IMG/VR virus record: IMGVR_UViG_3300042934_000338
Span: 1-26,207 of that record
Direction: 5' to 3' (one strand)
DNA length: 26,207 nt
Source of the DNA: a virus
Lineage: Duplodnaviria; Caudoviricetes
The notes beneath the pieces were generated by a model, which ran no database searches, had not been told where the DNA came from, and was given only the letters and a program-made list of their open reading frames with translations. Of this stretch, positions 776-26,207 are shown piece by piece. Each line of letters begins with the position of its first letter. Position 1 is the first letter of the stretch. The translations under genes were made by a program, and so were the position numbers.

Positions 776-789
776 AGGAGGTGTGCGTT

Positions 790-2870: not shown

Positions 2871-2879
2871 GAGGGCGAC

Positions 2880-5304: not shown

Positions 5305-5306
5305 AT

Positions 5307-5674: not shown

Positions 5675-5693
5675 GGCGAAAAGGAGCGATATT

Positions 5694-6290: not shown

Positions 6291-6310
6291 AAATTGAGAG
6301 GATGATATAA

Positions 6311-7285: not shown

Positions 7286-7297
7286 GGAGTGAATGGA

Positions 7298-7591: not shown

Positions 7592-7607
7592 GCACTCTTT
7601 TTCTTTT
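7577..7607 (+). terminator. Intrinsic terminator after the capsid genes
   Basis: GAGGGTGCT-gagta-AGCACTCTT then TTTCTTTT. Confidence 0.65.
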
Positions 7608-7622
7608 GAAGGGAGGCTTATT

Positions 7623-8678: not shown

Positions 8679-9029
8679 ATGTATAATGCAAAAAGCCAAG
8701 TAGCTAATAAATTAGCAGAAATCCAAAATGTTAATGTGGCAGCATCTTACAAGAAGGGCATGGAGTCGATACCGTGTATAATCTATAGAGAAGCTGGTAA
8801 TACGCAAATTTACCCCGGCAACGAAAGACTTATAAAAGTTGTTTATGTTGTAGATATTTACCATACCGTTTCTACAAGTTCACTTACTGACTCAGTTAAT
8901 GGAAAAATGAGTGAGTTAGGGTTCGCTAGGGACTTTTGTAATGATTTAGACGACCCTGCAGGATATAGACACAAAACAATGAGATTTAAAGGCGTTATAG
9001 ATACCAAAACGGAATTAGTATACCAATAG
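8679..9029 (+). CDS. Tail terminator protein, SPP1 gp17-like
   Basis: PCIIYRE, YVVDIY, MSELGFAR, HKTMRF; directly before the major tail gene. Confidence 0.8.
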   Translation: MYNAKSQVANKLAEIQNVNVAASYKKGMESIPCIIYREAGNTQIYPGNERLIKVVYVVDIYHTVSTSSLTDSVNGKMSELGFARDFCNDLDDPAGYRHKTMRFKGVIDTKTELVYQ

Positions 9030-9044
9030 AGAGGATGATTATAG

Positions 9045-9443
9045 ATGGCATTAGCTGCAACAGGCACCAAATTAGGTTATAAAGCCACTGAAGGAGCAAG
9101 TACTTTCACCGATATAGACGAATTGTTGGAAGTACCAGAGTTTGGAGGAACCCCTGAAAAGATAGACGTCACTACGCTAAAGGATACTGTTAAAAAATCA
9201 GTACCCGGTGTGATTGATTATGGAGATTTAGCATTTAGATTTATTTATGACAAAGCTGTATATCAGGCGATTAGTACTCTAACCGGTCCTATACCTTGGC
9301 AACTCACCTTACCTGACGGTGTAAAGTTTGATTTTACAGCAATCCCTTCAGCGCGTATGGCAGGCGTCGCAGTGAATGGAGCACTTACTTTCGCTATTAG
9401 TATGGACATGCAAAGCGAAATTGTTCCAACGTTCCCCACTTGA
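9045..9443 (+). CDS. Major tail (tube) protein
   Basis: GTKLGYK, VPEFGGTPEKIDVTTL.D, PGVIDYGDLAF, LPDGVKFDF. Confidence 0.9.
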   Translation: MALAATGTKLGYKATEGASTFTDIDELLEVPEFGGTPEKIDVTTLKDTVKKSVPGVIDYGDLAFRFIYDKAVYQAISTLTGPIPWQLTLPDGVKFDFTAIPSARMAGVAVNGALTFAISMDMQSEIVPTFPT

Positions 9444-9473
9444 GACTAGGTTAATTCCTAGTCTTTTTATTTT
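9443..9473 (+). terminator. Intrinsic terminator after the major tail gene
   Basis: AGACTAGG-ttaatt-CCTAGTCT then T-rich tract. Confidence 0.75.
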
Positions 9474-9492
9474 ATAGAAAAGAGGTATTTAT

Positions 9493-9846
9493 ATGAATTA
9501 CGTGAAGTTTGAAGTTGGTGATAAATCACTAAGACTTAGAATGGACACTAAAAACACGGTGAACCTTGAAAGATTAATTGGCACTAGTCCAGTTAACGAA
9601 TTAATGAAATGTGCTGGTGGTTATCTACCCACTATGGATTTCGTATCATCTACACTGCACGCAAGTTTACAGACATTAGAGCATGGTTACACGCTTGATA
9701 AAGTCTACAAGCTTATAGATGAATACGTAAAGGATGATAAGAGCCTTGTGGATATAATCCCAACACTCATGGAAGTCTTTCAATTAGCAGGACTCATACC
9801 AAAGGCAAAAGAGGAAGATGTTGAGGATGAAACCGACCCAAAGTAG
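9493..9846 (+). CDS. Tail assembly chaperone (gpG analogue)
   Basis: 117 aa between tail tube and tape measure genes; ends at slippery heptamer C CCA AAG just before TAG. Confidence 0.88.
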   Translation: MNYVKFEVGDKSLRLRMDTKNTVNLERLIGTSPVNELMKCAGGYLPTMDFVSSTLHASLQTLEHGYTLDKVYKLIDEYVKDDKSLVDIIPTLMEVFQLAGLIPKAKEEDVEDETDPK

Positions 9847-10226
9847 ATGAGGAATCGGTCGGATATAAAAACTGGACAGAAGCTATTAATGATATTTATA
9901 AACCAGCCCTCAGAAACGGTATAAAATCCACCGAGTTTTGGGATATGACATATCAAGAAATACTTGACCAAATAGAAGCTTATCAAGCAAATAAATTAGA
10001 TGATATGCGGTTTGATGCTATCGTGTCATATCAAATAGGCAAGATGGTTGTTAATGGTATAGAAAGAGTTTTTGGAAGTAGCGAACCACCTAAACAAATT
10101 CATGAATTATACCCTACCCTATTTAGGGCGCCTGAGTTAAAACAAGAGAATTCAGAAAGCATAAAAGCTAAAATGATGGAGTATGCTCAGCACTGGAACG
10201 CTAAATTTAAAAAGAAAGGAGAGTGA
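9837..10226 (+). CDS. Tail assembly chaperone frameshift extension (gpT analogue), -1 frame
   Basis: Frame is open from CCCAAAG (9837) through ORF 9945..10226 and includes GIKSTEFWDMT upstream of that ORF's ATG, which lacks a good RBS. Confidence 0.85.
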   Translation, partial: PKVDEESVGYKNWTEAINDIYKPALRNGIKSTEFWDMTYQEILDQIEAYQANKLDDMRFDAIVSYQIGKMVVNGIERVFGSSEPPKQIHELYPTLFRAPELKQENSESIKAKMMEYAQHWNAKFKKKGE

Positions 10227-10230
10227 AAGC

Positions 10231-12897
10231 ATGACATTAGAAGAGTTGCAAGTAATAATCACAGCTAGAACCGCTCCTTTACAAACACAACTTGCCGGAG
10301 TTAGTAGGCAGCTTCAAGGGCTACAAGCGAATACATCAAGGTCTATGTCTGGCGTGCAAAATAGCGTAAATAGAGCTACGGCTGGAGTAAGAAGTGCGGC
10401 AAGCAAGCTTAAAACAGCTCTTATTGCTTTAGGCATAGGCAAAGTGCTTAAAGACAGCTTTGACATAACTAGAATGTATGAAGCTAACGTACAGCAAATT
10501 AATAGGCTGTTTGGATCCTACGCTAGTGCTATGGATAGCTGGATTAAGAAAAATGCAACAATGTTCGGTATGGCCCGTGCTGACGCCATGAAATACGCGT
10601 CCGTATATGGCAACCTATTAAGTGGATTTTTAGGGAGCCAATCGGAAATGTCAACAAAAACGCAAGAGCTCTTAAAAGCTACAACTATAGTAGCATCCAG
10701 CACAGGCAGAAGTGTTGCCGATGTATCTGAACGAATTAGATCAGGTCTATTAGGAAATACAGAGTCGATTGAGGACTTGGGAATCAATGTCAATGTGGCT
10801 TTACTTGAAACGACAGAGGCATTTAAACAGCTTGCTAACGGCAAGTCATGGGAAAAACTTAGTTTCCAAACACAACAACAGATCAGATTAATGGCTATCT
10901 TAGAACAGGCAAGCACTAAGTTTGGTGATAGTATTCAACAGAATACAAACTTTCAGCTTATGCAGCTCACTGCTAATTTGAAAAACGTAGCTCTTAATAT
11001 AGGTCAAGCTTTTATGCCTATTGTGAGCGTTGTACTTCCAGTACTTAACTCCATGTCTCTCGCATTAAGCAATACCACTGCAAGACTAGCGGAATTTATG
11101 AATGTTTTATTTGGTACTAACTTTACAGCTGGTGCCGGAGAAGTAGCACAAGTGGGTGTTGGGTTTGATGGTGCTGGTGATAGTGCAAAAGCAGCTGGGG
11201 AAGAAGCTGAGAAAGCAGGTAAGGCTGCTAAGAACGCTCTTGCTTCATTCGATGAAGTGAATACTCTATCTAAAAATGCAGGCGGTGGAAGTGAAACAGG
11301 TGCAACCCCTACTACTGCTGTGCCAGCTGGTATTAGTCAATTAGAGACAGCTGCGAGTGGTCTGGCAGATAGAGTTAAGGCCGAACTTGATAAACTCAAG
11401 GCACTATTTAAAGATGGGTTTGAAATAGGCTTTAAGAGCGCTAATTTAGATAAACTAAAAAGTGAGCTTGATAAACTTAAAATTAATCTTGAAAATTTAT
11501 TCAATGATTCAGATATAGCCGAAGCGGCAAGAGAATTTATAAATAAATTAGCAAAAGCTCTAGGCCAAACGTTAGGTGCATTTTCAAGTATAGGTGTTAC
11601 TATAGCCACCAACTTGATAGGCGGCCTAAACAACTATTTAGAAGATAATGCTGATTTTATAAAAGAAAAGATCATTTCAATATTTGATATATACGGTGAT
11701 GTTTATGAGAAGATAGCTCAATTAAGTACAATCTTTGCTGATATTTTCAGTATGTTCGCTGATGAAAATGGTCAGCAGGTCACGGGTAATATTATAGGAA
11801 TATTTGCTAATGCGGCACTCAACATGGCTGAACTTGGTGGTAAAGTAGCGCGTGATTTTTTAGGCTCCATAGTTAAAGTTCTAGGTGATAACAAGGAATA
11901 TATCAAACAAGCTTTAGATAATACACTAGGAAATTTAGCATCCATAACCGACACTCTTGAAAAAGCGGTTACCGACACAGGTATAGCGATAAATAATGCA
12001 TACGATACTTATATTAAACCGGCTTATGATAATATGGCTAGTGGATGGAGTAATGTTGTAAGCTCATTTTTAGAGGTTTATAATGGACAATTATCTCCGG
12101 TCATCGATGAATTATGTGAAAGTATAGCTGCAACTTACGAAGAATACTTGAAGCCAGCTATAGAACAAACCCTCACAGCATTAGGTCAAGTTGTAGAGAA
12201 TTTTAGTATCATGTGGAATGAGCATTTGGCTCCTTTTATAGGTTGGTTGGTGGAAACTTTTGGGCCAGTTGTAAGCCGAATATTTGACGGTATGGCATCA
12301 AGTGCTTTAGAAAACATTAATGAGATACTCGCTGTGATAAATGGGTTTTTAGAAGCTCTAAACGGGGTATTGAAATTTATGAATGGTGTGTTTACCCAAG
12401 ATTGGCGAAAAGCTTGGGAAGGTGCTAGAGAAATATTTAGAGGTGTGTTTAATAGTCTGGTAGGTATCGTTAAAGATCCATTAAATCAGATCATAGACAT
12501 GGTTAACCAAATGATAAATGGTTTAAATCGTATATCTATAAACATACCTAATATACCGGGCATACCGGGAGCGGGTACATCTTTCGGTATGAGTATACCT
12601 AATATTCCAAGGTTAGCCCGTGGTGGTATCATAGATAGCCCTACAATCGCAATGATTGGAGAAGCTGGCAAAGAAGCCGTAGTGCCGTTAGAAAATACAG
12701 CATTTGCTGATAAGTTTGCAACTGCTGTAGGAAATGCAGTATTAACAGCTATGCAATTTATGAATACTGGAGCAAGTAATAACAGTAATGAAACTCCTGC
12801 TGTATTTGAAATAGATGGTAATGAGTTTGCACGTTTTATAATCCCGCATATCGGAAGCTATATTAGAAGAACAGGGGTGAGGTTGGAAGATGCTTAG
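10231..12897 (+). CDS. Tape measure protein, about 888 aa
   Basis: MTLEELQVII start after AAGGAG; long helical Ala/Gly-rich protein; LASFDEVNTL, W/F periodic region, IPRLARGGII..PT.AMIGEAGKEAVVPL. Confidence 0.95.
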   Translation: MTLEELQVIITARTAPLQTQLAGVSRQLQGLQANTSRSMSGVQNSVNRATAGVRSAASKLKTALIALGIGKVLKDSFDITRMYEANVQQINRLFGSYASAMDSWIKKNATMFGMARADAMKYASVYGNLLSGFLGSQSEMSTKTQELLKATTIVASSTGRSVADVSERIRSGLLGNTESIEDLGINVNVALLETTEAFKQLANGKSWEKLSFQTQQQIRLMAILEQASTKFGDSIQQNTNFQLMQLTANLKNVALNIGQAFMPIVSVVLPVLNSMSLALSNTTARLAEFMNVLFGTNFTAGAGEVAQVGVGFDGAGDSAKAAGEEAEKAGKAAKNALASFDEVNTLSKNAGGGSETGATPTTAVPAGISQLETAASGLADRVKAELDKLKALFKDGFEIGFKSANLDKLKSELDKLKINLENLFNDSDIAEAAREFINKLAKALGQTLGAFSSIGVTIATNLIGGLNNYLEDNADFIKEKIISIFDIYGDVYEKIAQLSTIFADIFSMFADENGQQVTGNIIGIFANAALNMAELGGKVARDFLGSIVKVLGDNKEYIKQALDNTLGNLASITDTLEKAVTDTGIAINNAYDTYIKPAYDNMASGWSNVVSSFLEVYNGQLSPVIDELCESIAATYEEYLKPAIEQTLTALGQVVENFSIMWNEHLAPFIGWLVETFGPVVSRIFDGMASSALENINEILAVINGFLEALNGVLKFMNGVFTQDWRKAWEGAREIFRGVFNSLVGIVKDPLNQIIDMVNQMINGLNRISINIPNIPGIPGAGTSFGMSIPNIPRLARGGIIDSPTIAMIGEAGKEAVVPLENTAFADKFATAVGNAVLTAMQFMNTGASNNSNETPAVFEIDGNEFARFIIPHIGSYIRRTGVRLEDA

Positions 12898-13237
12898 TAT
12901 AAACAATGTGGAAATGCCTACCCCTAGCGGATACTCAGCTAATATTATGGATATAGTGGACGCAGAAAGGGACTCAAAGGCAACAATGCATATAGACTTT
13001 ATAGCCAAGAAGTGGAAGCTAGAAGTAACGTGGAGCGTACTAAAACAGGCCGATATGACTAAAGTATTAAACGCTTTAGAAAATAATACGACGTTTAATG
13101 TATCATTTATAAACCCAAACACTGGAAGCCCAACCACGGCAATATTTTATAAAGGTGATAGAAGTGTAACAATGCTTAGCTTTATAAATGGTGTTGCTAT
13201 ATGGAAAGACTTTAAGATTAATTTGATAGAGGTGTAA
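12890..13237 (+). CDS. Small tail-tip protein, probable distal tail (Dit-like)
   Basis: 115 aa overlapping the TMP stop; MPTPSGY, KWKLEVTW, FYKGDRS, INLIE pattern. Confidence 0.7.
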   Translation: MLSINNVEMPTPSGYSANIMDIVDAERDSKATMHIDFIAKKWKLEVTWSVLKQADMTKVLNALENNTTFNVSFINPNTGSPTTAIFYKGDRSVTMLSFINGVAIWKDFKINLIEV

Positions 13238-13238
13238 T

Positions 13239-14450
13239 ATGAAAACAGCAAGTTTACAATTTAAAAATGCCATTAAAAATAATATGAGGGAGATAGATAC
13301 TCGCATTATTTTTTATAACGGCAATGATAAATATGTAATAAGAGGTAACGATGTACAGTCAAACAAATATAACACCTCAGTAGAAAAAGAGTTAGGAGGT
13401 ATCGAAAAAAAGATACTAAATCTAACTCTTATTAAAAATACAATCAGCGATAAGATAATAAAAGGTACGGTGTTATATAGGGAAACATGGGTTAAATATA
13501 ACGATAATTGGTATAGTGACTTTCAAGAGAAGTTTATTGTTGTTTCAAGAAAAGGTATAGATAGCAAAAATGTTATAAAAATAGAGGCAGTGGATGAGCT
13601 TACGATTATACGCAGTACGCCACTGCCTTATTTGGCTCAAACTATGAACATAGACCTTATAAGCTATTTCAATACTTTGTTATCTATAATGACAAATGAG
13701 CATGTACTTGATGCAAATCTAGCTAATCCTATGTTATCTTTAGCTTTTCCAAAAAGCACGAACACTCATGAAACATTGTTAGAAATGTGCGTGGCGTCAC
13801 AAGGAATCTTAAAATCAGATTTTACAGTTAAAAAATTTGTAGCTGCCGACCCTGTAGATAGGCTTAACTATGGTCAAGGGTTACTTAAATATGAATTTGT
13901 AGACAGTGACCTAAACACCTATAAAGATGTTATTATTAGTCTGTTTTCGCCCACAAAAAAGACTTTCAAGAGTCTTGGTAGCATCATGACTACAATCCCA
14001 CCGTCAGCTGTAGACTATAAGCTTGGAAATATAGAATTTGATAAGCTGTATATACCTCAATTAATTACTTTCAACCAAGAAGTCGAAATTGCTAATTATA
14101 CAATAGGTTCTAAGACTTGCTCTCTTACTATTACAAGTAGACTGAATGAGCTGATGGAGCTTGAAACGGAGTTCTTGGGATTAGATGTGAATAGCGTAAG
14201 TGCTATGAGTGAGAACACAGAGAACAAGACTAAATTTGTAAATAATATATACATTCAGAGTCCTACGGTTTATGACACTTTTATATACACAGCAAAAGGT
14301 ATCAATATCAAATACACAGGCAATACGCTGTATGAAGTGGGAGACACAATACTGGTTGACGATAAGTACAAAGTGTTTATAGTAGATCACAACTTGGATT
14401 ACAGTGGAGGACTTAAAGGTACTATTAAGGGGGTGTTGATTGATGGCTAA
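13239..14450 (+). CDS. Probable baseplate hub / Tal-like tail-tip protein
   Basis: 403 aa after the Dit-like gene; C-terminal YTGNTLYEVGDTI...LDYSGGLKG is typical of hub proteins. Confidence 0.65.
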   Translation: MKTASLQFKNAIKNNMREIDTRIIFYNGNDKYVIRGNDVQSNKYNTSVEKELGGIEKKILNLTLIKNTISDKIIKGTVLYRETWVKYNDNWYSDFQEKFIVVSRKGIDSKNVIKIEAVDELTIIRSTPLPYLAQTMNIDLISYFNTLLSIMTNEHVLDANLANPMLSLAFPKSTNTHETLLEMCVASQGILKSDFTVKKFVAADPVDRLNYGQGLLKYEFVDSDLNTYKDVIISLFSPTKKTFKSLGSIMTTIPPSAVDYKLGNIEFDKLYIPQLITFNQEVEIANYTIGSKTCSLTITSRLNELMELETEFLGLDVNSVSAMSENTENKTKFVNNIYIQSPTVYDTFIYTAKGINIKYTGNTLYEVGDTILVDDKYKVFIVDHNLDYSGGLKGTIKGVLIDG

Positions 14451-15987
14451 TACAACTTTAGGGGCTAACATATTAAACGGCCTAGATGGCACCATAACAG
14501 TCAACGGTAGCATAAATCAAATAGTTACAGTGTACGGTGATAACAAACAAGATCAATACACTTTGAGTTATGAAGCCATAACTCTTAACAATGCTAAAAA
14601 TTATATATTAGCTTATTTACATTTAGATGATGGTACAGTTAACACTTTCTTTTTCCCTGTACAATTTTTGGGTGAACAATCAATAACATTTAATATACCG
14701 TTTAAGATGTCTAGCTTACAGTTTTATATATACGGTAACTTGCAGATTAAAGATACTAAACTGCAGGCGGTTATCCTAGAAGCACTCACAGAAGAACAAA
14801 AGCTGCTGCTTGATAAAGTGTCCAGTAACGGAGAGTATTGGGATAGGATACTTGCTATTACAAACGCTTTGGGGAATGTAATAACCTCTAAGCTTGAAGG
14901 TAGTATTAATACAGCCTTAAATGCTATAACCAACAGTGACGGTAAGATGTACTGGCAAGATGGGAATTTTATTGTTAGGAACGGATCTACGGACGCTACA
15001 AGTACGCAGGCTATGAGATTTTCTCCGGCAGGATTTATGATTGCTAATGGTAAGAAACCTGACGGCAGCTGGGATTGGCGAACTTTTGGAACTGGGGCAG
15101 GCTTTACGGCTGATTATATTATAGCTGGGACTCTAATAGGCGTAGCAATACAAGGCGTAACGATAACTGGTAGTATCATCACAGGTGGCACAATCAATGG
15201 TGTTACAATCAATGGAGCTACTATATACGTAGGTGACAAAGATGCAGGGAACTATATTGAAATATCCCCTAACAATCCTATAAAAGTATGGAGAAATGAT
15301 GTTGTAGTATCAAGCTTAGGCTATTCAGCTGTTGGTGGGGGAAATTTAAATATTTATGATGTCGGTGGCAATGTAGCATTTAAAATCGAGTGCTTAAGCG
15401 ATGGGAGATTGAGGCTGTATTGTAACAATTCTACAGGTGTTATACCTGACCCAGCTCATCCGGGGTTTTATTTACCTAACCCTAACCCAGATACTGTATA
15501 TTTTGATGCTGGTAGAGTAATATTCCCGTCAAGTTCAGCTGGTATAATGGGATATAACGGGACAACTTTTTGGCCATTCATCACTGATAGTGAAGCGGAC
15601 GCTAAATATGCGACAGACTTTGATTTATCGCTAACGATGCAACAACACATATCATGGTATCACAGCGGTATATCTGACAGAAGACTAAAAGAAAATATTA
15701 AATATGTAGATCCTGCAGATATGGTTAATTTAGCTAACCATGTTAAAATCGCAACCTTTAATATCATAGAAGATGAAAGTAAAAAAGAAAGATTAGGTGT
15801 AATAGCACAAGACTTATTAGAACATTCTCTGGGAAAATATTTTGTGCAACCTATACCGGGGCGAGAAGATGAAATGATGATGGTAGATTATGAATCTCTT
15901 GCGACTACAGCGTTAGGTGCAGTTAAACATCTATCCGAAAAAATAGAAACATTAGAAGAGAAAATAAATAGCATAGAAAGGAGCTGA
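14443..15987 (+). CDS. Tail spike/fibre with C-terminal intramolecular chaperone (peptidase S74-like)
   Basis: GFTADYIIAGTL, G-x4 repeats (GTLIGVAIQGVTITGSIITGGTINGVTINGATI), then SDRRLKENI...GVIAQD...VDYESL and a terminal coiled coil. Confidence 0.88.
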   Translation: MANTTLGANILNGLDGTITVNGSINQIVTVYGDNKQDQYTLSYEAITLNNAKNYILAYLHLDDGTVNTFFFPVQFLGEQSITFNIPFKMSSLQFYIYGNLQIKDTKLQAVILEALTEEQKLLLDKVSSNGEYWDRILAITNALGNVITSKLEGSINTALNAITNSDGKMYWQDGNFIVRNGSTDATSTQAMRFSPAGFMIANGKKPDGSWDWRTFGTGAGFTADYIIAGTLIGVAIQGVTITGSIITGGTINGVTINGATIYVGDKDAGNYIEISPNNPIKVWRNDVVVSSLGYSAVGGGNLNIYDVGGNVAFKIECLSDGRLRLYCNNSTGVIPDPAHPGFYLPNPNPDTVYFDAGRVIFPSSSAGIMGYNGTTFWPFITDSEADAKYATDFDLSLTMQQHISWYHSGISDRRLKENIKYVDPADMVNLANHVKIATFNIIEDESKKERLGVIAQDLLEHSLGKYFVQPIPGREDEMMMVDYESLATTALGAVKHLSEKIETLEEKINSIERS

Positions 15988-15991
15988 AAAA

Positions 15992-18403
15992 GTGGTTAAC
16001 TATAATATAGACGTATACTTAAAGCATACCGAAATGGAAGCTATGTATGTTAGAGAAATGATAGACTTGGTTACGAACGACCATAATGGTAATACTTTCA
16101 ACTTCACGATACACGAAGGAGAAAGTATTTTTGATTTAACTGGAAAAACCGTTAAGCTGCTTGTAAAGAGTCAAAACGGTACAACTATTATGGATGATTG
16201 TACTTTATCAACACCTTATACGGCAGGCAAAGCTTATATTGTATTACCGTCAGATATGTTTCAAGAAGGAGGCGCGTATGTAGCAGAGGTGCAAATATAC
16301 CAAGGTGTTAACCGTATAACAACGCTACCATTCGACTATACGGTTAGACTTAGCCTTGAAACAGATGAATCGGTTTTAGCTGATAATCGATATAGCTTAT
16401 TGCAACAGGCTTTAATAGACGTTGAGGATGCGCAAACACAAGCTGCAGCAGCAGCAAGTACTGCAAGTACAGCATTGACTCAAGCTAACAGCGCAGTAAC
16501 CACAATAAATAATCAGATAGCAAATGTTAATAATACCGCAACAACCGTGAACACTCTCAAAACTACGGTGGAAAGTATGATAGCTAACATGGACAGGGTG
16601 GTCGAAGAGGAATTGCCTCCTGTAAGCTCACGAATAGCAGGAGTATTTTACTGGAAGTATTATGTGATCGATGGCGTTAGGAAAGTTGCTTGGATTGAGG
16701 ATCATCTTGGCAACAAATATGACATACACGATTATCCTACGAAATTACTAAGTATGAATCCAGACGGTACATTCCCAGCTACACCATGTGCACATCATTT
16801 CATTAGGGGCTTGACGGTTAAGGGTCAGACGGCGAGGAATTTATGTGAGTTTAACAATAATATTGACATGCAATCATTAGTACAAATAAACGCTGTTAGC
16901 GGAAAGTATACCAAAACTGCATCTAATACAAAGTATGTAGCAATTTTTAAGGTGTTAAGTTTTTCAGGAACACCAAGTTTATATTTCAGAGCCGAACAAG
17001 GTCTTGTGGGGATAGGCGTGATATCATCAACAGGTTTGAAAAAAGTAGAGTTTACCACGGGGTCAACGGTTAATAGCTCAATTCCTTATATAAGATTAGA
17101 TTCTGGCGGAGAAGCCATTACAGGCAATAGTGCTGTGTTAGAGTTTTTCAATGTAGTAGAATTTAATCAAGAATCATATGTGAACACAAGATTGCCCTAC
17201 GGCCTATCATCAGTAGGCGACTATGACATCACAGACAATCCGCTACGCATACTGCCAAATCTTGTGCAGGACACGATTGATAATGTTGCTACTGGAGCGG
17301 TTACTAGAAGGACCGCTAAAATGGTTTTAAATGGTAGCGAGGCATGGGCGTACAACCTTTACCAATCAACAACCGACTTAAGTATTGTTCGTTTTGCATT
17401 GACCAAAACGGATGCGCTTATCAGTTCCGATTTTGGCAATTCTATTTGGTCTGATAGATTTAAGAATCGTCAAGTTACTGGCACAATAGTTGGAGAAGGT
17501 ATATCTTTAAATTCATCTACAGCAGGTATACACATCGCAATATTCAAATCAAGATTGTCGGGATATTCAGAGTCATTAACCGACATACAAAAGGCTAATC
17601 TATTTAAAACTTGGCTTACCTCTAACAACACGAATATTGAATACCAACTTGCTACACAAACCACCGAAACAGTAGACACCGCAAAAATCAAACCCTTCTT
17701 ATGGTTAATGGTGAACGGAAGAAGGCAGAGGGTTCAGATAACTGATAATTTGCGTAAAATTGGAACGGTAGCAGACGAATTGGGAGTTAGAAGAATAAGT
17801 GGCTGGGTTAATCTCTCAACCTTACCTTGGACACAGACGGCTGCGGTTTTTACTGATTTTAAACAAGCAAATGCAACTTTAACGGGGCACTTAGCTAACT
17901 CGCTACAACTAACCGTTATCAAATATGATGGGAAAATGCTAAATCCCAACTTCGCACAAAGTGCCGACAATTGTGCATTAGGTGGTTCATCAGTTAATAT
18001 TTATGTTCCAAACTCTGATAGTGGGTTTAGTAATGCGTCCAATATAGTAACTATAAACGAATGGAAAGCATATTTCTACGGTTGGAAAATGTGTAATCCA
18101 GATGGGAGCGCATGGGATGGAGTGTCAACAAAACATTGGAAAAAAATTACGGATGGAACAGGGTTGACAAACGTTTTACCCACTGCATCTTACACAGGGT
18201 TTACGCCGTATAAGATGATTTATCAACTTGCTACGCCAACCTACGAAACAGTAGATATTACAACGCTTCAAACAATCCAAGGCGACAATGTAATCAAAAA
18301 CTTAAACTCAGTAATACCAGACAGCATGACAGCTACAGTATGCCAAACCAACCAAAACCTGCAAGACCAAATCACAGCACTACAAAATTTAGCATTATTA
18401 TGA
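15992..18403 (+). CDS. BppU-N-terminal-domain baseplate / receptor-binding protein
   Basis: N-terminal NDHNGNTFNFTI...FDLTGKTV...GAYVAEVQIY, Ala/Thr coiled-coil stalk, then duplicated beta-rich modules ending YQLAT. Confidence 0.8.
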   Translation: MVNYNIDVYLKHTEMEAMYVREMIDLVTNDHNGNTFNFTIHEGESIFDLTGKTVKLLVKSQNGTTIMDDCTLSTPYTAGKAYIVLPSDMFQEGGAYVAEVQIYQGVNRITTLPFDYTVRLSLETDESVLADNRYSLLQQALIDVEDAQTQAAAAASTASTALTQANSAVTTINNQIANVNNTATTVNTLKTTVESMIANMDRVVEEELPPVSSRIAGVFYWKYYVIDGVRKVAWIEDHLGNKYDIHDYPTKLLSMNPDGTFPATPCAHHFIRGLTVKGQTARNLCEFNNNIDMQSLVQINAVSGKYTKTASNTKYVAIFKVLSFSGTPSLYFRAEQGLVGIGVISSTGLKKVEFTTGSTVNSSIPYIRLDSGGEAITGNSAVLEFFNVVEFNQESYVNTRLPYGLSSVGDYDITDNPLRILPNLVQDTIDNVATGAVTRRTAKMVLNGSEAWAYNLYQSTTDLSIVRFALTKTDALISSDFGNSIWSDRFKNRQVTGTIVGEGISLNSSTAGIHIAIFKSRLSGYSESLTDIQKANLFKTWLTSNNTNIEYQLATQTTETVDTAKIKPFLWLMVNGRRQRVQITDNLRKIGTVADELGVRRISGWVNLSTLPWTQTAAVFTDFKQANATLTGHLANSLQLTVIKYDGKMLNPNFAQSADNCALGGSSVNIYVPNSDSGFSNASNIVTINEWKAYFYGWKMCNPDGSAWDGVSTKHWKKITDGTGLTNVLPTASYTGFTPYKMIYQLATPTYETVDITTLQTIQGDNVIKNLNSVIPDSMTATVCQTNQNLQDQITALQNLALL

Positions 18404-18407
18404 GAGG

Positions 18408-18614
18408 ATGAAGAAAATGTTTGAAACTATGAAGATGTTTATTGAGGCAGGCTATTACAAAGACGAGGAGGTTGTTAAGACCAAGGCTAATACATTTTAC
18501 CTTGCAGACGTTCTAAAGGATGAGGAATATGCAAATATTTGTCTTGTTATTGATTCAAAGTTTCATCCACCAGTAGATTCGGTACAGGAAGAACCAGTTG
18601 AACCAGAAGAATAG
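18408..18614 (+). CDS. Small acidic protein, possible fibre chaperone (XkdX-like position)
   Basis: 68 aa directly after the RBP; VLKDEEYANI resembles the IT.EEY.EI motif. Confidence 0.55.
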   Translation: MKKMFETMKMFIEAGYYKDEEVVKTKANTFYLADVLKDEEYANICLVIDSKFHPPVDSVQEEPVEPEE

Positions 18615-18642
18615 AATTTCAGTTTTATAATGAAAAATAGTA

Positions 18643-18663
18643 GCGCCAGAGGGCGTATTTTTT
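18643..18663 (+). terminator. Short terminator-like hairpin before the lysis cassette
   Basis: GCGCC-agag-GGCGT then ATTTTTT. Confidence 0.45.
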
Positions 18664-18699
18664 ATGCCCTCTTTAACAAGAGAAAGGGGAAAAGGGCCA

Positions 18700-18990
18700 A
18701 TGAATGAAAGCCAGATCAAGGAGTTAACTGAAACTACAGCTAGAAGCAAAAGCAATACTCATCGTATAGATAAGTTGGAGGAACAACAAAACTTACTGCA
18801 TGAAATGAATAGCAATATTGCAGCAATAGCCGAACAGACAAAGTATACAAAAGAAGAGGTAAGCGGGCTAAAAAAAGACGTAGAAGAGATTAAGATGAAG
18901 CCTAGTAAATTGCTAGACGGAGTGAAAGAAAAGGCGCTAGGGGTTATTGTGGGTGCTTTAGTGGGTGCTGTTATAGCACTTGTATTGTAG
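18700..18990 (+). CDS. XhlA-like lysis membrane protein (coiled coil plus C-terminal TM)
   Basis: RSKSNTHRIDKLE coiled coil and terminal ALGVIVGALVGAVIALVL; ATG at 18700 follows a purine-rich RBS. Confidence 0.75.
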   Translation: MNESQIKELTETTARSKSNTHRIDKLEEQQNLLHEMNSNIAAIAEQTKYTKEEVSGLKKDVEEIKMKPSKLLDGVKEKALGVIVGALVGAVIALVL

Positions 18991-19001
18991 GAGGTGTTTA
19001 G

Positions 19002-19253
19002 ATGTTTAAAATTAATATAGAACGTACGCCTAAGCCAAAAGGCAGATTTAGCAAAAGGATAATTATATTAATGTTACTCTTTTTGCTATTGTTTACAGTG
19101 GCTAATATAGGTCTGTTTTACTTGACCGGTAATGAACCAAGCACATTAATTACTTGCGTATTCGGATTTTGTGGGGCAGAGGGTGGTTATTTAGCATTTG
19201 TAAAAAAACTAAAAAACAAAGGAGATAATATTGATGGAAATACAAATTTATGA
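19002..19253 (+). CDS. Two-TM membrane protein, holin-like
   Basis: FSKRIIILMLLFLLLFTVANIGLFYLTGNEPSTLITCVFGFCGAE; AGGAGGTG RBS. Confidence 0.7.
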   Translation: MFKINIERTPKPKGRFSKRIIILMLLFLLLFTVANIGLFYLTGNEPSTLITCVFGFCGAEGGYLAFVKKLKNKGDNIDGNTNL

Positions 19254-19476
19254 TGTTGCAGTAGTGGCAGTTATTATAGGTATAGTTGAGATCGCAAAGC
19301 GAGCAGGGCTTAATACTAACTGGTGTCCACTGTTATCGCTTGCATTAGGCGTTACAGCGGGAGTTTTATTTTTATCAGATGGAGATATCAAGAAAGGTAT
19401 TGTAATAGGTATAGCTTGTGGTTTGAGCGCATCAGGCTTGTATGACAACGCTAAACTACCAATGACAAAGGAGTGA
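19234..19476 (+). CDS. Holin
   Basis: About 80 aa, three hydrophobic segments, VEIAKRAG, PLLSLALG, GLSASGLYD; directly before the endolysin. Confidence 0.88.
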   Translation: MEIQIYDVAVVAVIIGIVEIAKRAGLNTNWCPLLSLALGVTAGVLFLSDGDIKKGIVIGIACGLSASGLYDNAKLPMTKE

Positions 19477-19480
19477 TTAT

Positions 19481-20149
19481 ATGAGCACAGAACAATGCAG
19501 AGACATAAATAAGCTTCATCCTTTTGTTCAAAAAGTAGCAGAAGCATTTTTAGTTGAGTGCCGCAAGCAAGGATTGAAAATAAAAATATCTGAAACATTC
19601 AGGACAAAAGAAAGACAAGATTATCTGTACGCACAAGGGCGTACAAGAGCCGGTAATATTGTGACTAATGCTAAGGGGAGGGATATGCAATCTTATCATC
19701 AATGGGGGTTAGCTTTTGATATATATGTTGATATTCCTAATGACATATACAATAAATCAATCATGAGTAAAGCTATTGCAATTGCAAAGAAAATGGGACT
19801 GGAGTCCGGCGACTCATGGGGAGATACCCCACATCTACAATACACCTTTGGACTATCTATCGCTCAATTGAAAAGTGGTAAAAAACCACCAGAAGCAGTT
19901 AAGAGTGATGAAGATTTAGAAAAAGCGGTAGAGAAATTAGTTGTTAGAAATATTATAGGAAGTCCTGCAGCATGGTCAAGTATAGACAAGATTAATCTGA
20001 AAAATGTGCCAGCGCTACTCACTAAGATGGGTGGGGTCGATAGATTAGTGAAAGATAAAATAATTTCAGATAGTTTACTGTGGGCTACTGGTACTTATAA
20101 AATTGAACATGTTCGCAGTCTAATAATTAAATACGCAAATTTGGGGTAG
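19481..20149 (+). CDS. Endolysin, M15-family (L-Ala-D-Glu-type) Zn peptidase
   Basis: ETFRTKERQDYLYAQGRT, SYHQWGLAFD (SxHxxGxAxD), DTPHLQ; short repeated C-terminal binding region. Confidence 0.95.
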   Translation: MSTEQCRDINKLHPFVQKVAEAFLVECRKQGLKIKISETFRTKERQDYLYAQGRTRAGNIVTNAKGRDMQSYHQWGLAFDIYVDIPNDIYNKSIMSKAIAIAKKMGLESGDSWGDTPHLQYTFGLSIAQLKSGKKPPEAVKSDEDLEKAVEKLVVRNIIGSPAAWSSIDKINLKNVPALLTKMGGVDRLVKDKIISDSLLWATGTYKIEHVRSLIIKYANLG

Positions 20150-20403: not shown

Positions 20404-21078
20404 ATGCGTTGCACTCATTGTAATTTAGAAAACCATCAAACGGCATCATTTTGCACAAATTGTGGTCAGCCATTTAACAGTAAGAAAAAATGGTATGAAA
20501 GTAATATACTCATAATTTTATTAATAATTTTTCTTTTTCCTATAGGATTATTTATGATGTGGAAGTTTTCAAAATGGAATAAAGTTTTAAAAATTGTAAT
20601 TACCGTATTTGGTAGTATTATATTTTTACTGAGCTTTGGGAATAATCAATCAGCTCCAACTATTAAAAATGAGGAACCGAGTAAAGAGGTAATTCAAGAA
20701 ATTCCAGTTGAAGAAAAAGAAATCAGCGAAGAAGAGTATAAAGCGTCATGTGAAAAGTTTGAGTACAAACTAATCGCGAGAAACCCAGCTGATTATGAAA
20801 ATAAGAATGTGAGTATATCTGGAAAAGTAATTCAAGTAAGCGAAGGATTATTTGATACAGTTACTCTCAGAATAGCCACAAAAGAAAGTGAATATGGGGG
20901 TTATACCGATGACATTTATATGGTTACATACAAACAAGTTGAGAGTAACCGAATACTAGAAGATGATATGGTTGCTATATGGGGTCTTTGTGATGGGGTA
21001 ACAACTTATAAAAGCGTACTAGGTGGAAACATAACCGTACCGAGTATGGAAATGAAATATTATGAAATATTAGATTAA
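20404..21078 (+). CDS. Zinc-ribbon, two-TM membrane protein with C-terminal OB-fold-like domain (accessory gene)
   Basis: CTHC...CTNCG, KKWYE then two hydrophobic helices, acidic linker, YKLIARNPADY...SGKVIQV...RILEDDMV.IWG. Confidence 0.8.
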   Translation: MRCTHCNLENHQTASFCTNCGQPFNSKKKWYESNILIILLIIFLFPIGLFMMWKFSKWNKVLKIVITVFGSIIFLLSFGNNQSAPTIKNEEPSKEVIQEIPVEEKEISEEEYKASCEKFEYKLIARNPADYENKNVSISGKVIQVSEGLFDTVTLRIATKESEYGGYTDDIYMVTYKQVESNRILEDDMVAIWGLCDGVTTYKSVLGGNITVPSMEMKYYEILD

Positions 21079-21103
21079 TGTCATTAAAACTTAACACCCC
21101 CAA

Positions 21104-21135
21104 TTGTTGAATTATTAACAATCCTATTTTATACT
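21104..21135 (+). promoter_or_regulatory. SigA-type promoter overlapped by a Rex-like operator
   Basis: TTGAAT (21107-21112)-17 nt-TATACT (21130-21135); TTGTTGA-atta-TTAACAA (21104-21121). Confidence 0.6.
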
Positions 21136-21156
21136 GAGAATAGGGGAGGTGTACAT

Positions 21157-21201
21157 ATGATAAAAAAGAAAGATCTAATCACATATAAAAATACATGTTA
21201 A
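21157..21201 (+). CDS. Unannotated 14-aa micro-ORF MIKKKDLITYKNTC
   Basis: Strong RBS GGGGAGGTG (21143-21151), own promoter and terminator. Confidence 0.5.
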   Translation: MIKKKDLITYKNTC

Positions 21202-21203
21202 AG

Positions 21204-21238
21204 AAGACTAAGGGGAATGATCTTAGTCTTTTATTTTT
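21204..21238. terminator. Intrinsic terminator between the micro-ORF and the convergent repressor gene, possibly bidirectional
   Basis: AAGACTAAG-gggaatgat-CTTAGTCTT then TTATTTTT; A-rich on the left side. Confidence 0.75.
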
Positions 21239-21283
21239 ATACAAAAGTATAAGTTTTTATAATATTATTGTCGAAAAAGGGTT

Positions 21284-21604
21284 TTATTTTTTATACTTGT
21301 TAGCCAAAAACTCCATAAAACTGTTGAATTCTAATTTTAAGGCATTTGATTTTTCAGATGAGAGGTTTTTAAGATTAGCTTGTGAGATAAACAATTTGAA
21401 CAAATCATCTGAGTTAGTGAATAAAGAGAATATGCTAATATCAAGATTATTTGCTATTGTGCGCAAAAGCTCTAACGTAATTCTTTCATTTTGCTCATAA
21501 TATTTTACTGATCTCACAGATTTATGTATTTTTGCAGCAAACTCTTCTTGGCTTAATTCTAAATCTTCACGGATGTTTTTTATTCTATCACCTATGGTTT
21601 TCAA
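21284..21604 (-). CDS. XRE-family HTH transcriptional repressor
   Basis: IGDRIKNIREDLELSQEEFAAKIHKSVRSVKYYEQNER...LRTIANNL; TTG start with GAGGTGA RBS (complement of 21611-21617). Confidence 0.93.
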   Translation of the reverse strand: MKTIGDRIKNIREDLELSQEEFAAKIHKSVRSVKYYEQNERITLELLRTIANNLDISIFSLFTNSDDLFKLFISQANLKNLSSEKSNALKLEFNSFMEFLANKYKK

Positions 21605-21656
21605 ACTTTATCACCTCGCGTTATTATAACATTCGAGGTATTTATTTGACTTGATA

Positions 21657-21706
21657 GGTGCATAAACTGGTCACTTATAATTACTAAAGTGCACAATAGT
21701 TGCACT
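21657..21706. promoter_or_regulatory. Two palindromic operators in the divergent intergenic region
   Basis: GGTGCA-N7-GTCACT (21657-21675) and AGTGCA-N7-TGCACT (21688-21706) flank TATAAT (21676-21681). Confidence 0.65.
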
Positions 21707-21736
21707 AGATAACTTACATAATGAGAGGATGATTTT

Positions 21737-21991
21737 ATGTTTATTACAGTTACAAATGAAAGGAAAATTAATAGTAACAAAATAGATGAAATGAGGTATA
21801 ATAGTAAAACTAAGACTATAACTTTTTTTCTATGTACAGGGGAGATTATTATTAATACCTACGATGACATAGATTCATTCAATAATGCCTATAGATTATT
21901 TGATAGTGAGATACATCAAACAGCTTATGCTGTAGATAGGTTAGTCGCAGAGCTAGAAGAAATAAAATTCTACGGAATAAAAACATGTTAA
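21737..21991 (+). CDS. Hypothetical protein, 84 aa, divergent from the XRE gene
   Basis: GAGAGGA RBS; beta-rich N-terminus and C-terminal helix. Confidence 0.75.
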   Translation: MFITVTNERKINSNKIDEMRYNSKTKTITFFLCTGEIIINTYDDIDSFNNAYRLFDSEIHQTAYAVDRLVAELEEIKFYGIKTC

Positions 21992-22060
21992 TACTTTAAA
22001 CTAGTTTAAATAGGAAGAAACTAATAATTCTAGACAGTAAATTGACAGTGGAATATAATT

Positions 22061-22188
22061 AATTAGCTTTAAAGCTAAAGGGGTATAGTTTTAACACTAA
22101 ACAAGTTATTAGAGCAAAGGCTTTATTATCAATGCTTTAGTGCATATTTATCAATAGTTACAAGAGATGAATTAGCTTTAAAACTAAA
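22061..22188. repeat. 19-nt direct repeat, two copies, self-palindromic
   Basis: AATTAGCTTTAAAGCTAAA (22061-22079) and AATTAGCTTTAAAACTAAA (22170-22188), one mismatch. Confidence 0.85.
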
Positions 22189-22189
22189 T

Positions 22190-22220
22190 TACAGAACTCG
22201 GCGTATAGATTTGGTTAACA
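22190..22220 (+). pseudogene. rnpB: Displaced 3'-end fragment of the RNase P RNA gene (att core duplication)
   Basis: ACAGAACTCGGCGTAT matches the conserved 3' region of type A RNase P RNA (ACAGAACCCGGCTTAT, recalled from E. coli) at 14/16; a terminator follows; no rnpB body is upstream in the window. Confidence 0.6.
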
Positions 22221-22225
22221 TATTG

Positions 22226-22256
22226 ATAGACAAAGCTTTTGGCTTTGTCTATTTTT
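22226..22256 (+). terminator. Intrinsic terminator, probably that of the interrupted host RNA gene
   Basis: ATAGACAAAGC-ttttg-GCTTTGTCTAT then TTTT. Confidence 0.85.
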
Positions 22257-22415
22257 AATTGGGTTCAATTTGTTAAGATGATAATAATAGAATATAGAAT
22301 AGCGTATTGAGGAATAATGGGCTGTAAGGTAGCTGCTTTTATAAATTGAGGGGATTTTTGTTTTATGATATGATAAAATGAAATGATAAAATAGTATATA
22401 GGCGGGAAGTAAAGT

Positions 22416-22988
22416 ATGGAGCTATGGTTAGGGTCACTATTAAAAGAACTCAATAGTATTTCACGTATGGCCATTTTGGAAAATGCTTTTGAGACAGAGA
22501 AAATGCTACGCAGTTATTCAAAAATCTTAAAATACAGATGGGGTCACGAAGGAAATATAGTGATTGCAAGTTCAGAATTTGAGGTCATAAAAACACTTTG
22601 TGAGTTCTATCAAAGTAAGTGGCATAAAACATTTCATTTTGAAATTAGTCAGTCAGCAGATACCAAATCGCTCTTCATCCCTCACTATGGGATAATGGGG
22701 TATTTGAGTGTTATTTTAGAGAGCCTTGAAAACGAAACAAGAGATGACCTTCAAGTCACAGTAACTGCTGAGGGAATTGAGGGGCATATTGTTTTTTGCC
22801 TGCTGTTCACAGGAGGTGAGTATTTTGAAAAGATTTATTCAAAGGCTCAAAAGGCAAAGCAAGGGTTATATGACTCCATCCCAGCAGCGGAAGCTCGGTG
22901 GACAAAAACTTTTGGTGAAAATGGGATTCAAGTAAAGATACAGGATAAACTTCACCTGAAAATTTTATTTACAGTGACGCAAAGTTAG
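22416..22988 (+). CDS. Degenerate LytS/YesM-type histidine kinase core lacking the phospho-His and ATP-binding boxes
   Basis: LNSISRMAILENA...YSKILKY...IPHY aligns without gaps to LNVISMTALLENA...LSKFMRH...IPVF of the next gene. Confidence 0.7.
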   Translation: MELWLGSLLKELNSISRMAILENAFETEKMLRSYSKILKYRWGHEGNIVIASSEFEVIKTLCEFYQSKWHKTFHFEISQSADTKSLFIPHYGIMGYLSVILESLENETRDDLQVTVTAEGIEGHIVFCLLFTGGEYFEKIYSKAQKAKQGLYDSIPAAEARWTKTFGENGIQVKIQDKLHLKILFTVTQS

Positions 22989-22997
22989 GAGTACAGT

Positions 22998-24509
22998 ATG
23001 AGAAGAATGATTGATTTAATGAAAAGTGTCTCCATACGTGTGCAACTAATTTTCTTTTCTATTTTAATGAGCTGCATGATTGGAGGTATTGCCTTTTTTG
23101 TATTACACTGGAATGCTAAGGCATTACAAAATGATTCAGAATATATGAATTATATTTTTAAAATCAATAAGTTATATCAGATACAAGAAGAAAATGGAAA
23201 ATATTTATATCAAGTTGTTAAGACATTAGATGAAGAAGCCAAGATGAATCTAAGACAGCAGATTACAGAATCCTATGAATTGCTCAATGCAGTTGAATTA
23301 AGTTCGGTATCGGTAGATTCTAACGTAAGAATTAGGGTAACCCGATACCTATTAAAAAGATTTGAAAATCACGTGGAAGAAGTAATCTGGCTTAGGAAGT
23401 TTGAGGATAACGGAACCGATCAAGTAGAGGCAGACAGTTCCTATTATGTGATTTATATGGAATCATTGGATATTTTGTCCCGTATCACTACCTATCTACA
23501 AGAAATATTGAGGCTTAGTGTAGAAGAAAATCGGGAGTTTATTGAGAAGGCATCACAAAATAACAAGAGGTTACAGAGGCTTATAATCTTTTTCGTCTTT
23601 ATAGTAGTAGTGGCAAGTATAAGTTTCTGTATCTTTTTTTCTAATTATGTGACGGGACTTATTAAGCGCATAGCCGCTATGACAAAAAAGATAGCTAAAG
23701 GTAGCGAAAAACATGAAATCATGTCCATGGCAGGGCCTAAAGAAATTCAGGAATTAACGAGTAATTTCAATCAATTGCTGGATACGATTTATGCGCTTAA
23801 TGGAAAGGCGGAAGAAAAGGTTAAATTAGAACTGCGTTTATCAGAAGAAAAGCTGGAGAAAATGAAGGTGCGGGAATTATTAAAAGAATCGCAGCTTCAG
23901 GGATTGCAGACACAGATTAACCCTCATTTTTTATTCAATACATTAAATGTCATTTCTATGACTGCACTTTTAGAAAATGCAGATCAGGCCTATGCTTTAA
24001 TGATAGCTCTATCAAAATTTATGCGTCACTATCTTAAAAAAGTTAAAAGTAATGTGCCTTTAGAAGAAGAATTAGACATGATTTCACAGTATTTATATAT
24101 ATTAAAAGCCAGAATGGGCGAACAACTCCTTTACAGTATTCAGTGTGATGTGAAAACTAAGGAAATAAAGATTCCTGTTTTTACACTACAGCCTATTGTA
24201 GAGAATGCCTTCAAGCATGGAATAGAAGATCAAGTTGAACAGGGGCGAATTGATATTAGAATTAAAGAGAGAAATCGGAGTTTGTATTTAAGTATCTATG
24301 ATAATGGGAAAGGCATGACAAAAGAGGAAATAGACAGCGTTAGAAAAAAACTTATGGTTCATGATGTAGATTTTGGGGATCAGGCACATATAGGCATTGA
24401 GAATGTAGGGTATCGATTGAACCTAGTTTTTGAAAATAGGGTGAAGTATTACGTGAGAAGCTCTTCGAGAAAGGGAACTATTTTTACCATTCAAATCATT
24501 TTAGAGTAA
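22998..24509 (+). CDS. Sensor histidine kinase, YesM/LytS type
   Basis: Two TM segments, HAMP (EIQELTSNFNQL), H-box QINPHFLFNTLN, N-box QPIVENAFKHG, DNGKG, HIGIENV, GT.F. Confidence 0.96.
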   Translation: MRRMIDLMKSVSIRVQLIFFSILMSCMIGGIAFFVLHWNAKALQNDSEYMNYIFKINKLYQIQEENGKYLYQVVKTLDEEAKMNLRQQITESYELLNAVELSSVSVDSNVRIRVTRYLLKRFENHVEEVIWLRKFEDNGTDQVEADSSYYVIYMESLDILSRITTYLQEILRLSVEENREFIEKASQNNKRLQRLIIFFVFIVVVASISFCIFFSNYVTGLIKRIAAMTKKIAKGSEKHEIMSMAGPKEIQELTSNFNQLLDTIYALNGKAEEKVKLELRLSEEKLEKMKVRELLKESQLQGLQTQINPHFLFNTLNVISMTALLENADQAYALMIALSKFMRHYLKKVKSNVPLEEELDMISQYLYILKARMGEQLLYSIQCDVKTKEIKIPVFTLQPIVENAFKHGIEDQVEQGRIDIRIKERNRSLYLSIYDNGKGMTKEEIDSVRKKLMVHDVDFGDQAHIGIENVGYRLNLVFENRVKYYVRSSSRKGTIFTIQIILE

Positions 24510-24522
24510 AAGAGGAAAGATA

Positions 24523-26076
24523 ATGTTTCGTTTACTAATTGCAGATAATGAATATATAGAAAGAGAAGCGATGAAAACCATTGTCCAAAGAAAATTTGGA
24601 GAATTATATGAGATACGGGAAGCGGCAAATGGCCTACAGGCTATTGAAGAAGCAAAAACCTTTTTGCCACATGTGATTTTTATGGACATTAAGATGCCCT
24701 TTTGCTCAGGTATTGAAGCTGCTAAAAAAATACGTGAGTTTTCGCCGGAGGTGAGCATTGTGTTTATTACGGCCTATGATTATTTTGATTATGCCAAAGA
24801 TGCTATTGCGCTTCAAGCGGCAGAGCTATTACTGAAGCCCGTAGAAATGGAAAAAGTATGGAGTTTAATAGAGACACTTACGGAAAAAATGATTAAGGTG
24901 GAGAAGTGGCAATACCAGAATAAAGAACTAGAATTTAAATTTGAGCAGATTACCAGAGGTTTTCAGCTAGAGTTCATGAAAAGTTTGAAAAATTATAATA
25001 CCTCGTTAGAAAGTATTGAACAATATTTAAAGATTATGGATATATCCTTTGTCTGTGCAATGGCAGTGACGTTGGATTTTACAACCATTACGCAGTATAA
25101 AACCAGTGGTATTATTGAGAAGAATTTTATGCGTACACGGTTCTTAGATAAAGTCAGCAGACAAAGTGAGAAAAAAGAAATCCTATGTATTATTGGAGCA
25201 GTGGATGACTGTATGCAGCTTTTATTCTTAGAATCAAGAAGAGGAGAGAACGATCATGAAAGTATGAGAGAAAAATCTATTCTTGAAGATGTTCAGGATA
25301 TGATGGATGAAGCTATGGCTCAGATGCATATGAAGGTGGACTATACGAGAAGTGAACTGATTACGGAAGCTTCTCACCTGCCTATGGCTTTGTATTTATC
25401 AGAACAAACTCAGCTAGATAAGCAGGGAGCGGGGCAAAATGGTTATCCCTATGAATTAGAGGAACAGCTTATAGCTGCTTTAGAAAAACATCATTTTGAA
25501 GAAGCCAGAGGTTATATTGTGCAAATAGCAAAAGTTTTGCGCAGACTATACAGCGGTAATGCGTTTAATCGGGAAGCTAGGGGGCTATATGCTATCGTTA
25601 AACGAACGCTGAGGAGGTTTTCGGAGGATGTGATGATGCCTTATGCCGACCAGCTATCTGAAAGAATTTTTCAAGATGTGGATATGGTTTCTTTTTTTCA
25701 AAGGTTTTTTAGTTATGCAGAAGACATTATAGAAAATAGAAAGGATAAGAATCAAGTTTTGATTCAAAAAATAAAAGACTATCTTGAAGCGCATTATAGG
25801 GAAGATATTTCCCTCAAACAAGCAGCTGAGATGATAGGATTTAGTTCCTTCTACTTCTCTAAATTGATGAAAGAATATCTGAATACAAGTTATGTAGAGT
25901 ATCTAGCGTCTGTCCGTATGCGAAAAGCTAGGGAGTTATTAGAAACGACCGATAAAACGATCAGTGAAATCGGCTATGAAGTAGGTTATGCAGATGCTAA
26001 TTATTTTACCCGTGCCTTCAAACGGATAGAGGGTATGACACCAACAGATTATAAAGCTAATCATTTTAAAGGATAG
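24523..26076 (+). CDS. Response regulator with C-terminal AraC domain, YesN type
   Basis: Receiver LIADNE...MDIKMP..SG...ITAY..FDYA...LLKP; AraC domain ISLKQAAE...EIGYEVGYADANYFTRAFKRIEGMTPTDY. Confidence 0.96.
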   Translation: MFRLLIADNEYIEREAMKTIVQRKFGELYEIREAANGLQAIEEAKTFLPHVIFMDIKMPFCSGIEAAKKIREFSPEVSIVFITAYDYFDYAKDAIALQAAELLLKPVEMEKVWSLIETLTEKMIKVEKWQYQNKELEFKFEQITRGFQLEFMKSLKNYNTSLESIEQYLKIMDISFVCAMAVTLDFTTITQYKTSGIIEKNFMRTRFLDKVSRQSEKKEILCIIGAVDDCMQLLFLESRRGENDHESMREKSILEDVQDMMDEAMAQMHMKVDYTRSELITEASHLPMALYLSEQTQLDKQGAGQNGYPYELEEQLIAALEKHHFEEARGYIVQIAKVLRRLYSGNAFNREARGLYAIVKRTLRRFSEDVMMPYADQLSERIFQDVDMVSFFQRFFSYAEDIIENRKDKNQVLIQKIKDYLEAHYREDISLKQAAEMIGFSSFYFSKLMKEYLNTSYVEYLASVRMRKARELLETTDKTISEIGYEVGYADANYFTRAFKRIEGMTPTDYKANHFKG

Positions 26077-26127
26077 CACAAATTTGTTTCCTGGAATTTA
26101 AAGGGGAAACAAATTTGTGCTATTTTT
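26073..26127 (+). terminator. Intrinsic terminator with 19-bp perfect stem
   Basis: ATAGCACAAATTTGTTTCC (26073-26091) / GGAAACAAATTTGTGCTAT (26105-26123) then TTTT. Confidence 0.85.
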
Positions 26128-26207
26128 GTAGAATTATGAAAAACATAGCAATATAGTGATATAAAAAACAAGTCTGTGAATGGTTGTCTTTTGATGAGAT
26201 TGTTATA

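Follow-up and report, generated by a model that had tools for sequence, protein, structure and literature searches.

Where in the host chromosome did the phage in this stretch of DNA insert, and what is the short sequence at which phage DNA gives way to host DNA? The window, i.e., the whole stretch of 26,207 nt that was analyzed, is an entire viral record (IMGVR_UViG_3300042934_000338), linear and ~50% complete. It starts just before terS and runs through head, tail, and lysis genes and three low-GC accessory ORFs into a kinase/AraC regulator block; among the 80 terminase relatives kept of 184, the best shared 72% identity. As a rule, RNase P RNA is an essential ribozyme with a single gene copy, and few bacterial sequences are as conserved as its 3′ P4 strand. 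Tyrosine-integrase prophages and islands are known that sit in the 3′ portion of tRNA or tmRNA genes (Williams 2002, Islander/TIGER). By Rfam, the window contains no tRNA or tmRNA. We find that positions 22190-22260 are very probably the attR of a prophage whose tyrosine integrase inserts it into rnpB, with the gene being rebuilt, a reading to which the identity of a short rnpB fragment, the homology breakpoint, an empty allele in a relative, and the layout of related elements all lead. The features of the window are the following.

236-20149, + strand: right half of a siphovirus-like prophage (late regulator, terminase small and large subunits, major head protein, tape measure, tail/BppU proteins, holin, endolysin), from ORFs, Pfam, and PHROGs.
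20404-21991, mixed strands: low-GC accessory genes between lysin and junction, namely a 224-aa membrane/zinc-ribbon protein (+), an HTH regulator (21284-21604, −), and an 84-aa ORF (+), from ORFs, Pfam, and PHROGs.
22031-22052, + strand: tandem 11-nt repeat with a GACAGT core, 160 nt upstream of the rnpB motif.
22063-22078, 22086-22100, and 22172-22187, unstranded: three related palindromes, the last of which touches the junction.
22190-22221, + strand: displaced final 32 nt of a type A RNase P RNA gene (P4 3′ strand and P1 3′ strand), identical to L002:4391-4422; likely attR core.
22225-22258, + strand: rnpB intrinsic terminator, at the same place 3′ of rnpB in L002 and within the 71-nt block 22190-22260.
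22416-26076, + strand: host genes, i.e., a 190-aa ORF (the 22416 gene), a sensor histidine kinase, and an AraC-type response regulator (Pfam), 96.6% identical to the DNA 3′ of L002 rnpB.

The first-pass annotation had described a 30-mer followed by a strong terminator at the phage/host boundary, with no coding gene ending there. Both elements are indeed in place, with the 30-mer at 22190 and a terminator stem of 13 pairs at 22225-22253 (fold z = −3.12), and no forward ORF of at least 60 aa ends at the boundary. For the 15-nt motif ACAGAANNCGGCNTA, the window has a single occurrence, and 500 mononucleotide shuffles gave two. As for the remainder of the ribozyme gene, the window holds the 32-nt fragment only and no full-length RF00010 gene above the gathering score; the RF00010 match at 22106-22221 is weak (21.6 bits versus a gathering score of 100; Rfam). 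The fragment is complementary to the host P4 and P1 5′ strands, with duplexes of −13.0 and −12.1 kcal/mol, respectively, and all of the 59 distinct full genes have a Watson-Crick match at the variable P4 pair.

A prophage-free version of the locus was found through the response regulator, which led to a relative (97%) on contig L002, from a Clostridia MAG. This contig carries an RF00010 gene (134.6 bits, 4158-4422) whose last 32 nt are those of window positions 22190-22221, and the homology breakpoint falls exactly at 22190, which bears out the proposal that the boundary holds a displaced rnpB end. The blastn identity begins at L002:4391, equivalent to window 22190, and extends for 3,890 nt at 96.6% without gaps, while 12 of the 40 bases immediately upstream of 22190 match. 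L002 contains one motif match, and its rnpB adjoins the orthologue of the 22416 gene, which is the order that had been anticipated for an empty site. The predicted pairing strands fared differently from each other: the P4 5′ strand, GAGGAACGTCCGAG, is present exactly in L002, whereas the P1 5′ strand, expected to contain AACCAAAT, actually reads TGTTAAGTAAGTC, which nonetheless forms a 12-bp duplex with the 3′ strand (−12.1 kcal/mol). Compared with five family members, the L002 gene lacks 88 internal nt (at 4324-4325). A 397-nt contig from run X1 (see below) spans this point with 237 nt before it and 72 nt after it, leaving, by arithmetic, 88 nt between; because that contig has the 88 nt, the gap in L002 is likely an assembly error or a strain-private deletion.

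The mechanism that we propose would proceed as follows. The phage attP would carry ~70 bp that copy the rnpB end and its terminator, and arm-type sites would lie on either side, ~160 nt ahead of the motif and ~80 nt beyond it. Crossover with the host gene would rebuild a complete rnpB at attL from the host 5′ part and the phage 3′ part, and the original rnpB end would be displaced to attR. The integrase gene would sit immediately past attL and be encoded on the other strand, as is the case in relatives.

Searching 401 genomes across the order yielded 223 with a match, 11 of which appeared to hold two copies, and a full gene together with an orphan end was found in 4 of the 223 matching genomes (G046, G200, G214, and G217). 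The other two-copy candidates were set aside: G027, G044, G107, and G129 are contig-end overlaps; G141 (L221/L226) and G392 (L230/L231) each hold two different full rnpB genes and are probably mixed bins; and G150 was too short to class. Looser second matches in the family scan were chance matches where inspected (G006, G032). A second copy that rebuilds rnpB at the proximal boundary was observed in G402, G046, G200, and G214. The clearest layout is that of G402, where an intact prophage (terminase, portal, capsid, tape measure) occupies one contig and measures 39.5 kb from rnpB and integrase to the orphan end (L065). At the integrase end (L093), an RF00010 match of 147 bits, cut by the contig end, stands beside a PF00589 integrase, which as a query returned itself alone. 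G046, from the host's own family, has a full rnpB of 295.7 bits with an integrase C-terminal fragment, and its orphan end lies behind an amidase on another contig. G406 shows the order endolysin, motif, integrase fragment, and in G402, G406, and G046 alike accessory genes lie between the lysin and the att site. Among the 11 loci of the nearest family relatives of the G046 integrase, 1 is at rnpB (L238, 65%), 4 are beside tRNA-Thr, and 6 are without a tRNA found; integrase remnants at rnpB within the family were seen at L238, L216, and L217. Two further observations concern these genomes: a reverse-transcriptase-like gene adjoins attR in G402 (L246:2187-3920), and G200 and G214 (L228, L232) have a different layout, with the integrase match on rnpB's own strand rather than converging and the shared block beginning 22 and 61 nt upstream.

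A scan of viral contigs for the rnpB end returned 89 loci, around which we searched with an HMM built from ten integrases of these loci, each independently assigned to PF00589. A converging integrase begins at most 400 nt downstream of the motif in 31 of the 89 loci and upstream of it in none (0/89). A further 39 have enough flank and no converging integrase, 11 of them being orphans, and 19 have <700 nt downstream. The 31 integrase loci comprise 8 in which the integrase lies behind a full or cut rnpB, i.e., the attL layout; 20 without an upstream rnpB, i.e., the attP layout, one of them in a complete genome with terminal repeats; and 3 whose flanks are insufficient for a classification. Integrase ORFs at rnpB end about 43-137 nt away from where the motif starts, and the full rnpB genes with an integrase behind them score 257-296 bits. 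The integrase set is redundant, as 12 of the 20 compared fall into one cluster at 60% identity, with 8 clusters at 60% and 5 at 40%. In a scan of proteins at other loci, PF00589 adjoins the motif in 21 of 36. From such arrangements, other phages appear to occupy the same rnpB site. One candidate was rejected as an rnpB target and is not among the 31: at L029 (72-1509), a tmRNA gene lies between motif and integrase, and the tmRNA is the likelier target. L078:1143-2786 holds a large serine recombinase in converging orientation to a full rnpB, so that serine recombinases may use the site too. The viral-catalogue contig L034 has a full rnpB (2988-3337) inside a cluster of 22 tRNA matches; it belongs to a large phage that encodes an RNase P RNA of its own, or else is host DNA filed among the viruses. 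Among GenBank phages, nothing matched the window block meaningfully (best E 0.2), and the search brought up no cultured phage with the window attP; the attP of L036 gave a single 30-nt match there, in an unannotated record.

Tandem repeats of the kind that integrases use as arm sites are present on the phage side of the junction. The repeat at 22031-22052 contains the sole GACAGT-N4-6-GACAGT tandem on either strand of the window (at 22033) and likely constitutes the integrase arm-type sites of the P arm, although it scores 8/11 and hence falls below the 9/11 threshold that we used for tandem repeats. In G402, G046, and L042/L077, the last being an att pair taken from two different records, tandem 11-nt repeats were common to both ends of the element, at 140-165 nt ahead of attR and 65-88 nt beyond attL; the G200 and G214 pairs showed no clear tandem arm repeats. 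The three palindromes at 22063-22187 are candidate excisionase or regulator binding sites, and a similar palindrome motif directly precedes 22190 in a second element arm in run X1. No convincing, consistent signal of core-type inverted symmetry around the motif was apparent by eye. A sigma-70-like promoter (11/12) at 22031-22059 overlaps the arm repeat and points to the att core; it could produce an ~190-nt RNA with the displaced rnpB tail and the terminator as its 3′ end.

The other end of the element lies outside the record, and run X1 offers a view of it. This is the sole run that contains the phage and possibly the window's own source, so it is not independent; what follows refers to the contigs listed from it (8 of 10). 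A 2,393-nt contig covers 21400-22219 without differences, and overall the phage arm reaches 22219 at 8.3x, while the host side starts from 22209 at 9x. Three further contigs match parts of 22193-22260 with one to three differences, and two of these diverge at 22260. One of them, of 1,528 nt (7.1x), matches 22209-22260 with one difference and then continues into non-window DNA that starts with a tandem repeat. The loose end beyond 22260 opens with a tandem TGACAGT repeat (30 nt of the arm seen), and the window repeat matches the arm leaving the block at 22260 in 16 of 17 central bases by eye. The 7.1x contig may thus be the attL arm of the window phage, although these short contigs are unphased across the 71-nt repeat. 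At least two host alleles are present in this run (25.2x and 9.1x upstream of rnpB), and the window's downstream allele is the 9x allele. Elsewhere, the exact junction motif was found in no second viral contig and the species-level junction motif gave no matches in metagenomes; the family-level motif gave three loci, none from the window phage.

Run X1 also bears on two ways in which the junction could mislead. The junction at 22190 might be that of a different element, small or older, which is stacked at rnpB, with the phage in tandem with it or inside it and using its own att site elsewhere. The GC content of 20404-22190, which is 28-32% versus ~38%, would fit such an arrangement, as would the second element arm that joins at 22190 in run X1 together with several variants of the block, and the family integrase remnants at rnpB (L238, L216, L217). 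Nevertheless, there is no second rnpB motif, tRNA, or tmRNA between lysin and junction; accessory genes likewise separate lysin and att in G402, G406, and G046; and the depths of the phage arm, the branching arm, and the host side agree in run X1. We hence regard a stacked element as improbable. A chimeric join across the 71-nt repeat, placing a free or excised phage (attP) on an empty locus, seems comparably improbable; here rnpB would still be the target, and the strain would not be a lysogen. The listed contigs of run X1 do break at 22209-22219, none of them linking phage arm and host side across the full block, and attP layouts are common among the viral records (20/89). On the other hand, the matching depths of phage arm (8.3x) and host side (9x) are what a lysogen would give, and the window's downstream allele is the one at this same depth.

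The part of our reading that concerns the rebuilding of rnpB can be questioned separately. If crossover were of a short-core or serine type, rnpB might not be rebuilt, and the cell would use another rnpB copy or a protein-only RNase P. Precedent comes from the ffs-targeting phage phiEf11, which according to excerpts of PMC12540744 changes the final 17 nt of its target, and there is also the serine recombinase behind a full rnpB at L078, as well as the two different full rnpB genes in each of G141 and G392. Yet the contigs that leave at 22260 keep the block with one to three differences, the attL-type genes of relatives score as complete, and the empty relative L002 has one motif match, so that we consider an unrebuilt gene highly improbable.

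Returning to an attR at a rebuilt rnpB, we can place the crossover to some extent. Exact identity begins 1 nt before ACAGAA in the window, versus 2-61 nt in other pairs, which puts the crossover at or after 22190. It possibly lies within CGGCGTATAG (about 22199-22208), part of the conserved P4 3′ strand, and a crossover inside this strand may mean that the phage supplies just the distal part of P4, P1, and the terminator. The G046 pair bears on the position further: its full gene has a G-C pair in P4, at the pair that is Watson-Crick in all 59 genes, and its attR has a T at that position. This T may therefore be phage-derived, in which case the crossover would lie further right, before the positions, 18-19 nt into the motif, at which attL and attR differ in other pairs; a decaying attR that has drifted would explain the T equally well, and the rightward placement is thus tentative.

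The arrangement resembles that of elements in tRNA and tmRNA genes in that a displaced 3′ fragment marks the far end and a rebuilt gene the near end, and in its converging integrase and tandem arm repeats. It differs in that the target is the RNase P ribozyme gene (RF00010) and the copied block consists of the P4/P1 3′ strands and terminator. The mechanism is thus a known one and the recombination chemistry looks conventional, while the target, which is recurrent, is apparently undescribed. The nearest precedent is phiEf11 of Enterococcus faecalis, which integrates into ffs (SRP 4.5S RNA), as described in excerpts of PMC12540744. There, too, attB is an essential, non-tRNA stable RNA gene, and in the same excerpts the attP core lies near the int end (74 nt in phiEf11; about 43-137 nt in the rnpB loci). 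Unlike ffs as these excerpts portray it, the rnpB 3′ end appears to be replaced almost exactly, and whereas phiEf11 is there nearly confined to one species, the rnpB site is used by several integrase groups. The excerpted article also cites pneumococcal prophages in csRNA genes. Their attB is likewise a non-coding RNA gene, although the targets are regulatory small RNAs and not a universally conserved ribozyme. The csRNAs are dispensable.

Our literature search found no report of rnpB as an att site, which the tables or supplements of Williams 2002 and TIGER could list. The excerpts of PMC12540744 name tRNA, tmRNA, csRNA, and ffs as targets and not rnpB, and four of its supplements are without an RNase P term. 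In the portions retrieved of eight further papers (PMC2516327, PMC2386152, PMC2864759, PMC5771137, PMC2818188, PMC3541175, PMC5462765, and PMC6582537), rnpB figures just as an annotation, a marker, or an expressed RNA. If rnpB is a recurring attB, then island finders keyed on tRNA and tmRNA, as they are, would miss such elements or bound them wrongly. Integrases aimed at the conserved P4 strand would be candidate broad-host integration tools, and each lysogen would be a natural swap of the P1 strand and terminator of a ribozyme. A wider generalization strikes us as rather unlikely, namely, that the P4 strand of RNase P RNA joins tRNA and tmRNA as a third site of general docking, used by several unrelated integrase groups, with phage P1 strands and terminators, often unlike the host's, re-tuning ribozyme folding or level in lysogens.

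Two minor observations were made along the way. A strong hairpin at 26061-26136, 3′ of the response regulator, is probably a terminator, and it gives chance microRNA matches in Rfam. Furthermore, contigs of several genomes (G010:C83, G027, G044, G107, G129, and G150) start or stop near the rnpB 3′ motif, a pattern to be expected from populations with varying insertions at this site.
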